This document shows, piece by piece, positions 1,021 through 62,122 of a DNA stretch of 64,000 nucleotides (its first letter is position 1; each line of letters starts with the position of its first letter). Both the position numbers and the translations under genes were made by a program. The DNA comes from Eledone cirrhosa. Taxonomy: Eukaryota. The notes beneath the pieces were generated by a model. That model saw nothing but the letters and a program-made list of their open reading frames with translations, did not search any database and had not been told where the DNA came from. The stretch is taken from assembly GCA_964016885.1 (NCBI GenBank), contig OZ024743.1, positions 232,438,001-232,502,000 on the forward strand, in the 5' to 3' direction.

Positions 1021-1283
1021 TATATATATATATAAATATATATATAAATATATACATATACATATATCTATCTATACATATACATATATATATATATATA
1101 TATATATATATATATATATATATATATATATATATATATATATATATATATTTATATGTAGGAGGTGAGTTTTATTGTAGTACTATAAAGCAATGCAGAT
1201 ATCGGATAAGAAGCACTCTACAGTTTGTAGGACGGGAGTATACATAATATATAAGATCAAAAGATGGTTAAAAGAGTTCCATG

Positions 1284-1354
1284 TATTTTATTATGCGCAT
1301 TTCAAAAACAAATATCATCATGCAATAACATTTGTATTTTCATCAGATAAAATA
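1284..1354 (-). ncRNA. Type I hammerhead ribozyme motif
   Basis: Minus strand: TATTTTAT-CTGATGA-stem II-GAAA-TGCGCA-TA-ATAAAATA. Confidence 0.8.
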
Positions 1355-1475
1355 GGAAGACATGATATGAAGGTTAAAAAACACTTGTGAATAGTGCAGT
1401 TTTAAATCAACATGATATGTTGATATAAAACTGCACTATTCACAAGTGTTTATTAACCTTCATATCATGTCTTCC

Positions 1476-1546
1476 TATTTTATCTGATGAAAACACAAAT
1501 GTTATTGCATGATGATATTTGTTTTTGAAATGCGCATAATAAAATA
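1476..1546 (+). ncRNA. Type I hammerhead ribozyme motif
   Basis: Stem I TATTTTAT/ATAAAATA, CTGATGA 1484-1490, stem II hairpin, GAAA 1527-1530, palindromic TGCGCA, TA. Confidence 0.8.
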
Positions 1547-3454
1547 CATGGAACTCTTTTAACCATCTTTTGATCTTATATATTACATATATTTATATAT
1601 ATATATAAATATATACATATACATATATCTATCTATACATATACATATATATATATATTTATATTTATATATATATATATATATATATATATATATATAT
1701 ATATATATATATATATATATATATATATATATATATATATATATATATATATATATATAAATATATACATATACATATATCTATCTATACATATACATAT
1801 ATATATATATATTTATATATACATATATATATATATATATATATCTATTTATATATATATATATATATATATATATATATATATATATATATATATATAT
1901 ATATATATTTATATATATATATATATATATTTATATATATATATATATATATATATATATATATATATATATATATATATATATATATATACACATACAT
2001 GTATAATATATATATATATAGAGAGAGAGAGATATTAAGAGAGTGACAGACAGATAGAAATATATATATATATAGAATCCCTACATACATCGATGTACTT
2101 AAATATATATATAATGAGCGAGAGAAAGAGGAGATACGTGTATATATGTGTGAGGGATGTGAGTGAGCAAAACAAGATAAACAGAAAGATGAGTTTATTC
2201 TATATGTACACGCCTGCTACGTTTATATCAATATCTTCATTAAGATCTATTATAAAATAATTATAAAATAGGAAATGTTGGCAAATTTAAAGTATATGGT
2301 GACAGCACACTGTATGTGGTATTCAGAAATATAATTACACCTAACTCACTCTCTTAATCATTCATTCTTCTCTCTCTCTCTCTCTCTCTCTCTCTCTCTC
2401 TCTCTCTCTCTCTCTCTCTCTCTCTCTCTCTCTCTCTCTCTCTCTCTCTCTCTCTCTCACTGCCTCTTTCTCACCCCCTCATTCATATGTATTATTTGCA
2501 CTCTTCTTATATGTCCCCCAAATTCAAGTTTATATTGTATAAATTCAAAATATTATATGCCAACATATGTATGAAATATATATATATATATATATATATA
2601 TATATATATATATATATATGTATATATATATATACATATACATATATATATATATATATATATATATATATATATATATATATATATATATATATATATA
2701 TATATATATACATATATATATACATATATATATATATATATATATATATATATATATATATATATATATATATATATATATATATATATATATATATATA
2801 TATATATATATACATATATATAAACATATATATATATATATATATACATATATATATATTTAAAGATTAAACAAGGTTCCATGAATAAATCAAAGAATTA
2901 GTTTTACAATAGATTGGAAGCACTCAACAGAAAAAAGGTTTTCCAGAGTTATTAATATTCATTCAAAATATTAACAAAGATAGAAGTTCTATTTTTGTTA
3001 ATATTTTAAATGAATATATATATATATATATATATATATATATATATATATATATATATATATATATGCATACATATATATATGCATACATATATATATA
3101 TTTATATATATATATATATATATATATATATATATATATATATATATATATATATATATATATATATATATATATATAGTGTGTGTGTATGTGCGTGTGT
3201 GTGTGAAACTGTATGAGTTTCTCAATGTATGTATATGCGCATATGAGTAGATGTATCTACATGCGTCTATCTAAATGTGTATGTGTGTGTGTAAATCTTT
3301 CCCATTATTTTGCATAGCATTTGCAGTATTACGGTTATTATTGTTGCTCTCTCAAATATTAGCATAATTGGCATTATTATACTCAACACATTCATAATTA
3401 TCTTAACCATCATCATCAATATCATCATGGTTATGATCATCAACATCATCATCT

Positions 3455-4022
3455 TTTACCTAACATAAGACCTCACCCGAATGTAATCCGAAAACTGAAG
3501 TTAATCCTCACACTAACAAAACTAAATCCAAATGTAATCCTATCACTGACCACTAACCGTAACACTTGTACCTAATACTAACATTAATCATTGCAGTAAA
3601 CCTAATCCACATCCTAAAACTAAGCCTGGCCACAATTCTAACACGAACTTTTACTCAAACCCTAAACCTAACGCTAAACCAATGCCTAACACTAAACATA
3701 ACGCAAAGCGTATCACTATATGTAACCATAACCATACACCACATCCTAACCCGAACAGTAAACATTGCACTCAACACAATCCTATCCCTAACACTAACTT
3801 TAATCCAACCCTAAGCTTGACACTAATCTTACTCTAACATTAGCCATAACATTAACCCTAAACCTATCTCTAACCTTAACCCTAACACTAACAGAAAACT
3901 TAACCCTAAAGCTAAACCTGACCATAACTGTATCTCTATCCCTACACCTAACCCTATCAGTAACACTAACCCTAACTGCGAACCCAAACCTAACCCTAAC
4001 ACAAGCACTAAACCTACCTAGA
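3455..4022 (+). repeat. Degenerate (CCCTAA)n-like hexamer array
   Basis: Recurrent cctaac/accctaa/cactaa with 6-nt periodicity. Confidence 0.7.
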
Positions 4023-5207
4023 TATCACCCTATATCTTCGCAAACATACATACAAACCAACATTGGCAAAATGTGTTAGCCCTTACTGACAACAACTCCC
4101 CTATTGGTCATAAGTATTGACCAGTCTTTAACCAACATACAGTGAAAATCGGGTCCTCCTGTGCGAAAAACATGAAATCACAGGACACCAACAAACCGAA
4201 GAGCGCTCTCGCAACAAAATGTCTAGCTTCAACGTTTCCAGATGATCAGGAGTGTTGTTACTTTATTTTTTTCTGATGATGAGACTGTGAGCGTCTGGAA
4301 AGTTTGATCATACTATAATCTTAAGAACTGTAGAGGCTGTGTTAAAAAAGACAGTTCTAGTAAAGAAATTGAAAATGTCTTCAATGGCAACAACGCATAC
4401 ATACACATATACATATATATATACATACATATATATATATATATATACATATAGACTTATATATATATATTTATATATACACTTATATATATGTGTGTGT
4501 GTGTGTGTGTGTGTGTGTGTGTGTGTGTGTGTGTGTTGTGTGTGTATAAACACACTATAAAATATTCTTCACTATATTCTGCACATGCGTTTCAGCTAAA
4601 AGTATGTCCATTTTAAAATGTGTAAAAGTGAAGACATAAAAGATTGGAATTTCAAAATGGAATCTCTATGTAGAATATCAGATAATTACACGAATATCAG
4701 ATAATTCCAATAAATGTATTAAAATACAAAAATTATGTTAAATACAAATATATCTGTTATACCATCCACAGTTGTAATTTCGTTTAGGAGGGTTTAAGTA
4801 AATAATTAGATTAATATATAATGATAAATAGTTTGTTAGGCGGTGTAATATGAAGGTTTTAGGCCAAGGGTGCTGAAACATTTTGAGAGCATGTGATCAC
4901 TTTGGGGATAATCCTTTAAAAAGATTTCCATACATACCCGTGTGAATGTTCTAACCAGCAAATTACAATTTATATTATATTGTTCTTTTACAAAGTATTT
5001 CCTGAAGAAAGAAAATAAATACTTGAACGGTTTCTGATTAGACAAACAATGACATAAAATGTTTCAGGAATGGACTTTCAGATTTTCGGAATCTCGATTT
5101 CTGCTTTTTCGCTTAAATTCTGTCTCTTATTCATCTACTTCATTGTTTTCTAATTCAATTCCAAGAATTTTGCCTCCATTCAGTTTTTTCTTAAAATAGA
5201 TAATGAA

Positions 5208-5395
5208 ATAATTGTTTCTACTTTAGGCACAAGGCCAGCAATCACCCAGTGCATTACTGGTACTTTATTTTATCGACCCCGTAAGGATGAAAGGCAAAGT
5301 CAACCTCGGCGGGATTTGAACTCAGATCGTAAAGGGACGTAACTATGCTGAAAAGCATGGCGTCCGACCCTCTGCCGATACTGCCAATCCCCGCC
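5208..5395 (-). mobile_element. tRNA-derived SINE with Meta-like central domain
   Basis: Minus strand: A box TGGCAGTATCGG, B box GAGTTCAAATCC, GCCTTTCATCCTTACGGGGTCGATAAAATAAAGTACCAG; many copies in the window. Confidence 0.85.
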
Positions 5396-60445: not shown

Positions 60446-60577
60446 GACAAATAATATCGATTATTAAACGGTATAGCTTTAAACACAGACAAGCACACAC
60501 GTCTTATTTGTATTTGTGTATGCCTGTTTATAATCCAAAGTCTAGTTTAAAGTTTGTCTCGAGCTAGAAGGCTTGTC

Positions 60578-60805
60578 AGGCCAGAGCTTATCTCGGTTTC
60601 GTGGCGTGAGGCGACTCATTGTACAAGACTTCTCCCTGGACATGACGCTAATTTATCGCAGGGTGAAACCCCCAGCTATTGTTAGTATTCATTTTCAGCT
60701 GAGTATACTGGAGACATGTAAAATGAAGTGCTTGAGTCAAGAACACAACACACAATCCGGTCCAGGAATCGAACCCAACACCCTTACCACTAAGCCATGC
60801 GCCTT
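60578..60805 (-). mobile_element. tRNA-derived SINE (second family)
   Basis: CAGCTGAGTATACTGGAG...AAGTGCTTGAGTCAAGAACACAAC, B box GGAATCGAACCC, A box ACCACTAAGCCA. Confidence 0.7.
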
Positions 60806-61484
60806 CATGTTTATGAGTCTTTGCAAAATATAATTTATAACGAAGTTTTAAAATTATGACTGGATGTATCTTTGAAAAATTTGTTGAATATGTTCGGTGT
60901 AGTAGATTGAATTTATTCTAAAAGACGAGGAACGAAATCAACTTGAGTTACTTTTAACTTTGTCAAAAATACATTAAGAAGTGAATTGTTTGAACACTCG
61001 CGTCTTGAAAAAATTGTTCATACTTCTAATAAATTAAATAACATTTAAATATAAAAAGGGAAACTATAATTAGCTACAAACGATCCTTTCCTCCGATTTG
61101 CTGCTTGGAAATTTGATTTCTCATTATTTTGCATGCATTTTTTTTTTTCTTATTTTCTATTAATTTCTCTCATCTTCCTCGACACACTGTTTTAATCATG
61201 TTTCAATATTTCACTCCATTATTTTCTCTCTCTCTCTCTCTCTCTCTCTCTCTCTCTCTCTCTCTCTCTCTCTCTCTCTCTCTCTCTCTGTATATATATA
61301 TGTGTGTGTGTGTATATATGTATATATTATATATATATATATATATATATATATGCAAAAGTTCTATTTAAATTGTTGGGATACAACAAGCAAATATTTT
61401 TATAACTGATATAAAGCACTCGACAAGTATTTGGAGTAAATATACGATATTAATAAATGGAAACTATATTTATAAAACCATATG

Positions 61485-61549
61485 TATTTCATTATACATA
61501 TTTCAAGGATACCATGTTAAATTATGGTATGCCTTCTTCAGATAAAATA
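61485..61549 (-). ncRNA. Type I hammerhead motif (family B, CTGAAGA core)
   Basis: Mirror copy of 61707-61771, differing in the core at free position N7. Confidence 0.75.
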
Positions 61550-61706
61550 CAATATATACCAGTTTTATAAATAAACATTGACGTACCCTTTCAAAATGCG
61601 ACCGTTACTTTTGGAAGACATCAGGACTATCCTCATGTCTTCCAAAAGTAACGGTCGCATTTTGAAAGGGTACGTCAATGTTTATTTATAAAACTGGTAT
61701 ATATTG

Positions 61707-61771
61707 TATTTTATCTGATGAAGGCATACCATAATTTAACATGGTATCCTTGAAATATGTATAATGAAATA
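61707..61771 (+). ncRNA. Type I hammerhead motif (family B)
   Basis: TATTTTAT-CTGATGA-AGGCATACCAT...ATGGTATCCTT-GAAA-TATGTA-TA-ATGAAATA. Confidence 0.75.
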
Positions 61772-61961
61772 AATATGGTTTTATAAATATAGTTTCCATT
61801 TATTAATATCGTATATATATATATATATATATATATATATATATATATATATATATATATATATATATATATATATATATATATATATGTGTGTGTGTGT
61901 GTGTGTGTGTGTGTGTATATATATATATATTTATATATATATATATATATATATATATATT

Positions 61962-62122
61962 ACGAAGGAAGTGTGGTAAGGAACCAGATGGACCATAACG
62001 CACCAAAGTACTCAATACTTAGGGTAGTAGAGTGGGTACTAGGAAAATGTTTGAATTCAGACCGTAAAGGCACATAACTCTGTGCTGTAAAGCATGGCGT
62101 CCGACCATCTACCGATACTGCC
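61962..62122 (-). mobile_element. Family G tail fused to a SINE 5' portion
   Basis: G-family sequence to ~62049, then TTTGAATTCAGACCGTAAAGG...GATACTGCCA (SINE head, minus strand). Confidence 0.7.

Follow-up and report, generated by a model that had tools for sequence, protein, structure and literature searches.

Twin hairpins beside the alternative 3' ends of Hydra-clade Penelope-like elements in Eledone cirrhosa

Why should otherwise dissimilar palindromic repeats in one genome stop just short of the same small hairpin? The question is raised by a stretch of 64,000 nucleotides (nt) from Eledone cirrhosa (GenBank assembly GCA_964016885.1, contig OZ024743.1, positions 232,438,001 to 232,502,000, forward strand), hereafter the window, in which an earlier note, made from the letters alone, had described a shared 3' tail of the form RCTC-hairpin-GAGY. 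That note took the families to be pseudo-long terminal repeat (pLTR) ends of Penelope-like elements (PLEs) that share a conserved, covarying cis element, and this is borne out. The signal is conserved, but it belongs to one group of these elements, the Hydra clade, and not to PLEs in general. We consider it likely, with a probability of roughly 0.7, that the hairpin acts as one of a twin set, each member of which would bind the PLE reverse transcriptase (RT)-endonuclease on RNA and set the start of reverse transcription 4-9 nt upstream.

The hairpin and its covariation

The window was read by eye outside 18001-23999. All twelve listed motif sites lie at the coordinates and on the strands that had been reported for them. 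A strict pattern, ACTC-N5-45-GAGT(G/A)CT, yields 18 matches with overlaps counted, spread over 14 sites from about eight families, compared with a mean of 1.2 and a maximum of 4 in 60 local dinucleotide shuffles; the loose pattern RCTC..GAGY is not enriched in the window over its shuffles (83 vs 58.6 +/- 11.9, maximum 89). The reported (G/A)CT ending was too narrow, the motif being present without it at 7263 (GAGT-ACC), 12294 (GAGC-CTT) and 31699 (GAGC-TAA), and the site at 1211 is present with one substitution that breaks an upper stem which pairs in other family-A copies.

The ACTC/GAGT hairpin itself stands, although a fixed 2-nt bulge on its 3' side had been overlooked and the best covariation lies in the upper stem, not in ACTC/GAGT. 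The full form reads RCTC, upper stem, variable loop, stem, YH bulge (mostly TT, TC or TA), GAGY and RCT. Because MAFFT misaligned copies with unequal loops, we relied on a same-length alignment and on pair counts anchored in 89 non-redundant copies (70 metagenomic and 19 from this genome, the partner being hand-chosen in 3). The three pairs above the bulge are formed in 83, 70 and 63 of these copies against permutation means of 63.7, 40.3 and 34.1, and none of 2000 permutations reaches the observed values; bulges of 0, 1 or 3 nt give no comparable signal in the 89 copies. Pair counts also exceed shuffled and slid controls, a model-fitted alignment agrees, and RNAalifold returns an identical fold on 13 same-length copies. 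Covariation, which the earlier note had proposed as a check, is significant. G-U or U-G outnumbers A-C or C-A by 21 to 3 at the upper-stem pairs, which argues that it is the sense RNA strand that folds.

Loop size appears free, since the two copies in the element type represented by locus L176 (3280-7460) have loops of about 70 nt (copy 1) and about 100 nt (copy 2), in a 4-kb untranslated region (UTR) that is mostly TA/TG microsatellite. The closing pair is G-C in 66 of the 70 metagenomic copies; an unselected scan of this genome gave A-T 10, G-C 2, G-T 2, A-C 1 and other combinations 3 times.

Two copies, two ends

Copies that read through the usual end reveal a second hairpin, and are the only ones in which it is visible: it lies 55-137 nt downstream of the first, directly ahead of the ATG. 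Read-through patterns drew 72, 445 and 258 matches, while reversed controls drew 0. Copy 2 is present in 12/12 read-through rows of family H and 12/12 of family G, and in family A it is intact in 4/6 and carries one change in the other 2; read-through copies of family 13 (L037, L184) hold no strict copy 2 past the long end. Among 54 testable metagenomic Hydra loci, the strict pattern finds two copies in 32, spaced 55-83 nt apart, one copy in 11 and none in 11, and several of the strict-negative loci contain decayed copies by eye. Where both copies are found, copy 2 lies 13-31 nt ahead of the open reading frame (ORF) in 30 of 32 loci.

The long arm ends just ahead of this second copy (8 nt in H, 6 in G, 7 in A, 6-8 in the L176 family, 7 in L068 and 7 at window position 59520), so both ends lie 5' of a hairpin. 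The motif therefore marks the stop of the short arm, as had been claimed, but not of the short arm alone. In families A, B, G, H and J the short arms do stop 2-8 nt ahead of RCTC, TA overlap allowed, and the long arms do run on past the hairpin; the length first given for this extension, about 80-95 nt, is better stated as 71-102 nt from RCTC in the window, with 72 in G.

The genome, of 3.0 Gb, is rich in (TA)n, and from it 80 unselected 10-kb stretches and, separately, targeted loci were drawn; end positions were tallied over 864 kb of unselected sequence. The 113 TA-flanked 3' ends form two main groups, one of 51 at -15 to +9 of RCTC and one of 51 at the family long end, whose position is partly set by how the reference was cut; the other 11 are further upstream, mostly owing to one reference that runs into an adjacent short interspersed nuclear element (SINE). 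None of the 113 lies at +10 to +54, that is, inside the tail; ends without TA were tallied separately. The 3' ends are thus non-random relative to the hairpin, which was the second check that had been proposed. In tail-anchored copies the inverted arm ends at -4 in 18/21 copies of family H and at -4 or -7 in 13/14 short copies of family A. Among 18 ends of metagenomic loci that are not contig ends, 11 lie 0-4 nt ahead of copy 1 or 2, 3 are TA-run artefacts and 4 lie elsewhere. A TA start at -9 to -4 is found in 25/25 copy-1 and 21/23 copy-2 contexts (controls 11-12/25 and 7-8/23), junction and target overlap mostly by 2-4 nt, and 62 of 83 motif matches in the 864 kb have a TA run within 90 nt downstream. 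TA runs are insertion hotspots, with tail-to-tail Hydra copies nested in the same run; at window 14235-15278 and 26319-26500, and at L007 and L033, long tails face each other over a TA run, often with other Hydra copies nested.

The palindromes were examined in 60 tail-anchored loci, which gave 37 rows with an adjoining inverted arm. That arm is short in 35 rows and long in 2, the latter being a single insertion met twice. In 18 of the 35 the short arm extends beyond the long arm on the 5' side, by up to 154 nt; the long arm extends further in 8, and 9 are equal or blurred by a diverging reference. The extra 5' sequence of the short arm is absent from the long arm in L349 (125 nt), L350 (77 nt) and L362 (154 nt), and since a fold-back copy cannot hold sequence absent from its template, the best reading is that each arm arose as a separate cDNA. 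Differences between arms are fewer within than between insertions (2.2 vs 4.0, 3.7 vs 5.1 and 3.5 vs 10.2). Amplification of the palindrome as one whole unit was rejected, as centres vary while ends are constant.

The copies in the window, and features that accompany them, are as follows.

1212-1239 (-): hairpin copy 1, family A, upper stem broken; arms stop at 1157 (long) and about 1585 (short); family traced to a Hydra ORF
1278-1354 (-): hammerhead-like fold of type I within the long arm of family A, mirrored at 1476-1552 (+)
2919-2949 (-): hairpin copy 1, another family, whose tail stops in (TA)n at a distance of 91 nt from ACTC
7263-7285 (+): hairpin copy 1, GAGT-ACC family
12294-12342 (-): hairpin copy 1, family B, closed by a G-C pair; the long arm stops at 12261 and the short one at about 12545
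14363-14384 (+): hairpin copy 1, H-related family; decayed mirror copy at 15111-15134 (-)
14563-14585 (-): hairpin copy 1 in a subfamily of H; hammerhead core at 14629-14700 (-)
26708-26756 (-): hairpin copy 1, B-related, absent from the earlier note
27315-27341 (-): hairpin copy 1, family G
31699-31723 (+): hairpin copy 1, family J, closed by a G-C pair; the long arm stops at 31787 and the short one at about 31439
37744-37770 (-): hairpin copy 1, family G
40274-40300 (-): hairpin copy 1, family G; arms stop at 40229 (long) and 40414 (short); intact Hydra ORF of G elsewhere
57205-57227 (-): hairpin copy 1, family H; arms stop at 57144 (long) and 57581-57584 (short); hammerhead core at 57269-57339 (-)
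57785-57812 (+): hairpin copy 1, further family, 5'-truncated insertion
57979-58007 (+): hairpin, unassigned single copy, without TA 4-9 nt upstream
58190-58228 (-): hairpin copy 1; insertion ends in (TA)n at 58158
59501-59520 (-): hairpin copy 2, previously overlooked; 7 nt past the position where the 58190 copy ends
59558-59596 (-): hairpin copy 1, read-through copy of the 58190 family
61415-61437 (-): hairpin copy 1, family H; arms stop at 61354 (long) and about 61811 (short)
62007-62033 (-): hairpin copy 1, family G
62409-62436 (+): additional candidate copy with GAGC-TTT, followed after about 70 nt by a TA run; differing minimum free energy (MFE) fold
63042-63067 (+): candidate copy, decayed, within the inverted pair 62740-63115; the short arm stops directly ahead of it

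A covariance model trained on 12 copies from other sources (R1) gave 13 window matches at E<=5: 6 listed sites, 4 G tails, copy 2 at 59501-59520, 1 new candidate and 1 likely chance match. It missed 6 of the 12 listed sites, which have long loops or an A-U closing pair. A relaxed scan of the loci gave 154 matches in 28 clusters, of which 19 were kept and 9 set aside by eye as chance or off-motif.

Host elements and range across animals

The families derive from the 3' ends of Hydra-clade PLEs that integrated into (TA)n; for A, G and H, which are Hydra families other than L176, the link to a Hydra ORF was traced. Three intact PLE types occur in the genome, and the L176 type carries the motif. 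A single ORF with a PLE-type RT and a GIY-YIG endonuclease (EN) is intact in family G (L391) and the L176 family and is present in broken copies of H; no ORF link was found for families B and J or for those at 57785, 57979, 2949 and 7263. Pfam gave no match for the Hydra ORFs of this genome, and their assignment rests on motifs and 104 homologues. PMC8557442 gives as diagnostics of the clade RWK, DKT in place of DKG, CxCX5C, CxxC/CxH, an EN without CCHH finger and a (TA)n target. Here the RT motifs read RLRWR/DKTGN (G), RIRWR/DKTNN (H), RVRWR/DKTGN (L176) and RLRW (A), the K of RWK being R. The CxCX5C linker, CxxC and CxH around conserved E and N, and a C-terminal EN are present in G, H (L394) and L176, and no CCHH finger was evident in the EN by eye. 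The pLTR, partial tandems, inverted 5'-truncated copy and optional tail are all present, and insertions lie in (TA)n or, in a minority, in (CA)n. Unit lengths of 3531 nt (G) and about 6.67 kb (L176) depart from the clade's usual <3 kb. A decayed PLE ORF fragment at window 4046-4200 (+) has relatives that match the Hydra protein.

The elements run in the order ORF end, UTR, putative hammerhead, 48-67 nt, hairpin. A predicted hammerhead core with stems I-II is found in A and H, a predicted core lies 48-67 nt upstream of the hairpin in 21/26 metagenomic loci, and the core of family G is non-canonical. We rejected the motif as a hammerhead stem III, given this separate core and GAGC-A and GAGT-G as common forms; the expected arrangement (ACTC/GAGT after GAA, within a CUGANGA core, then U-H) is not that of the motif. 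Rfam gave 0 matches at E<=1 in six two-copy Hydra loci, neither for the motif nor for a hammerhead, and in the window scan the best 150 of 262 matches were microsatellite-driven miRNA noise.

Other PLE types (L182, L188) have fixed ends but no motif. Of the 2 matches that the covariance model found in 32 such loci, one belongs to a nested family-G insertion and the other is weak. A non-Hydra PLE inverted pair at window 35262-35408 (-), grouped with L188, L192, L193 and L195, has a 53-nt tail and no motif seen. Among the TA ends of the L188 type in the unselected sample, 11 are short and 6 are long, and its read-through copies show TATCG after both ends, a hint of another repeated signal.

Beyond this genome, an alignment of 47 of the 104 homologues plus L176 was made, and 99 loci were then drawn from metagenome and genome collections. 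The sense-strand motif occurs in 31 of 60 loci with enough 3' flank (antisense control 5); some of the remainder may lack it because copies stopping at the short end are expected to do so. The metagenomic Hydra loci are most likely host animal DNA. Hydra PLE ORFs also occur in 21 contigs of prokaryotic assemblies from animal-associated samples (L286-L306), likely host DNA binned in, and no relatives were found in viral contigs. Among published consensi in the supplement of PMC8557442, the motif is exact in Hydra-2_Amil (coral) and in Hydra-1_Ajap and Hydra-2_Ajap (sea cucumber), with two copies ahead of the ATG in Hydra-1_Ajap. Hydra-1_Crog (copepod) has a variant motif, one copy of which bears a double change in the lower stem, and among the six new Hydra consensi given there the motif was not seen in Hydra-1_Amil and Hydra-1_Obim. 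A motif 9-mer search of this 584-kB supplement placed 4 of 7 matches in those Hydra consensi. By sequence, the motif is conserved over Mollusca, Cnidaria, Echinodermata and Arthropoda.

How the ends may form, and what follows

Where the earlier note had offered RT initiation or nicking, the G-U bias, the variable spacing and the two independent arms favour RT initiation on RNA. We propose that the PLE protein cuts (TA)n on both strands and that each free 3' end would prime cDNA once paired, over 1-4 nt, to a UA-rich patch that directly precedes a hairpin on its 5' side. A start at copy 1 would give a tail-less end and a start at copy 2 a tailed one; the tail would then be the interval between two binding sites, with copy 2 itself never copied. 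Both DNA ends would be primed, usually one per hairpin and probably on the same RNA, and the two 5'-truncated cDNAs might be joined head to head by microhomology into asymmetric palindromes. For the Poseidon PLE, PMC11167929 reports that both strands are cut and extended and that RT starts at two sites bounding the tail. As a tentative extension, the twin set could form two tandem telomerase-like modules (UA patch plus protein-bound hairpin) by which two proteins prime both (TA)n cut ends from one RNA.

Several points weigh against hairpin-directed initiation. Protein binding and RT start sites are deduced from junction positions, PMC11167929 describes the Poseidon start site as without homology to the cut DNA, and the family A long end overlaps its target by 1 nt only. 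The 22 of 54 metagenomic loci with one or no strict copy count here as well. The covariation permutations ignore phylogeny, and the lower stem, being nearly invariant, carries little covariation. Lone hairpins are weak (z -0.3 to -2.2), with the intended lower stem in 12/15 MFE folds; copy 2 pairs less well (25, 13 and 15 of 26), and joint folding of both copies yields both local hairpins in 3/9 regions and copy 1-copy 2 pairing in 3/9. At the family level, pairing is better locally than crosswise. Conserved pairing between the copies through the quasi-palindrome GAGYRCT appears in single folds but was rejected: the commonest form, GAGCACT, mismatches midway, and cross-pairing counts are lower. 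Finally, the likeness of the arms fits one RNA or one source locus, and gene conversion fits as well.

The alternative that survives best, though we hold it unlikely, is that the motif works in DNA, as a site or cruciform for the GIY-YIG endonuclease, which would cut just upstream when an intermediate is resolved and so trim the ends. The tail has been ascribed to EN-mediated resolution (Craig 2021, PMC8557442), Frangieh 2024 (PMC11167929) cites the tail as required for recognition by the D. virilis EN, and GAG-YR-CTY is almost palindromic. The sense-strand G-U bias, a spacing that varies from 55 to 137 nt and the retention of a one-sided 2-nt bulge argue against a DNA-level role, and trimming leaves unexplained why short arms reach further 5' than long arms.

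Somewhat less probable again is a role of the hairpin in RNA processing: it would cause the RNA to be cleaved, or a 3' end to form, just ahead of itself, and RT would start at the RNA 3' end as in long interspersed nuclear elements (LINEs). Sharp ends would suit this, as would the ACTC/GAGT stem III of some Hydra hammerheads in File S2 of PMC8557442. But the hammerhead core is a separate structure and the junctions are not at its cut site; the motif is without CUGANGA/GAAA and often without a U-H cut site, it matches nothing in Rfam, and Poseidon starts internally on unprocessed RNA (PMC11167929).

Self-priming has been proposed for palindromes in PMC3846280; here a long-arm cDNA would fold back and the second strand would halt at the hairpin to leave a short arm. 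Many centres are near-perfect palindromes with 0-20 nt spacers and recur at natural hairpins, and arms are alike within a copy, both as fold-back would have it. We nevertheless rank it slightly lower still: the 18 of 35 short arms with 5' sequence absent from the long arm contradict it as a general route, solo short ends follow full ORFs (L198, L204), and the long end ahead of a hairpin is left unexplained. It may still apply to the 8 palindromes in which the long arm reaches further and the 9 scored as equal. That the hairpins mainly serve as a translational operator or packaging tag near the ATG, with UA patches alone setting the ends, is the least probable account, for although the closeness of copy 2 to the ORF speaks for such a role (one compatible with hairpin-directed initiation), TA is common throughout these AT-rich UTRs and yet 0/113 ends lie inside the tail.

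To our knowledge, the origin of the PLE tail and inverted ends has been open for about two decades, and the sole in vitro system, Poseidon, gave two starts and no conserved signal. In telomerase RNA (alignment and boundary elements) and the R2 3'-UTR structure, a protein-bound RNA positions the first copied base with short primer-template pairing, a likeness of arrangement. L1 twin priming likewise uses two primers on one RNA; it inverts without duplicating, whereas here both arms duplicate the same 3' region. The elements resemble the Hydra clade of PMC8557442 in protein diagnostics, (TA)n target, a putative pLTR hammerhead, optional tail and inverted 5'-truncated copies, and differ in tails of 70-137 nt vs 30-40 and units of 3.5-6.7 kb vs <3 kb. 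The motif is present unremarked in the consensi of that paper, which describes no tail motif; 'hairpin' and 'stem-loop' have 0 occurrences in its main text. Poseidon PAc of Anolis (PMC11167929) is alike in having two RT starts that bound the tail, cutting and extension of both strands, and a protein-binding region past the hammerhead. Its starts lie at an AC-rich stem-loop inside the ORF without target homology, whereas the Hydra sites are found in the 5' UTR of the unit that follows. Each of these is succeeded on its 3' side by the repeated conserved hairpin, and the TA overlap there is mostly 2-4 nt. In Fig. S1B of that paper a word, GCC-n-GAAAG-n-ACAAC, seems to be repeated ahead of each Poseidon start, its letter order being uncertain. 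Non-LTR (long terminal repeat) retrozymes are likewise short hammerhead-bearing PLE derivatives (bioRxiv 10.64898/2026.07.22.740005); families A, G and H, however, are not tandem non-autonomous monomers but come from coding Hydra elements, of which they are truncated ends. The literature searched gave no description of the twin hairpin, with the limit that subscription papers and Repbase notes fell outside its scope and may mention it. The hairpin is real and Hydra-specific, and it is new as a described cis element in a known kind of system.

The window holds further repeats. Two LINEs at 41592-44991 and 47505-50916 (-), 72% identical and presumably L1/Tx1-like, encode an APE endonuclease and RT, each with an upstream ORF1-like frame. 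An element at 32078-33046, which we take to be mariner-like, has terminal inverted repeats of about 100 nt between TA runs and no Pfam match. A 514-nt inverted repeat (99%) with internal duplications lies at 38965-40161, with no motif seen. Perfect 193-nt arms around a 100-nt spacer lie between TA runs at 63182-63690, with a short GC-containing extension on one side, and are possibly another PLE end. A dispersed SINE-like family of about 190 nt occurs at 5200-5400, 17335-17759, 25585-25780, 33603-33764, 40765-40896 and 60250-60450. The long open frames in 17763-23947 are artefacts, because this is a 6-kb low-complexity GGT/TAC array with 63- and 124-nt periods.

Taken for the Hydra clade, a short conserved element predicts both putative RT starts within a few bases, and the genomic evidence here opposes simple fold-back. 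The hairpin set offers a minimal RNA, natural compensatory variants and intact ORFs for a direct test. It is also a means to delimit Hydra elements in annotation: each Mb of this genome holds dozens of 'unknown palindromic repeats' that are truncated Hydra ends. If the tandem telomerase-like arrangement were true, the tail, the inverted pLTR and its asymmetry would come under one rule, and a 25-nt hairpin would be a portable tag that programs the start of a telomerase-sister RT.

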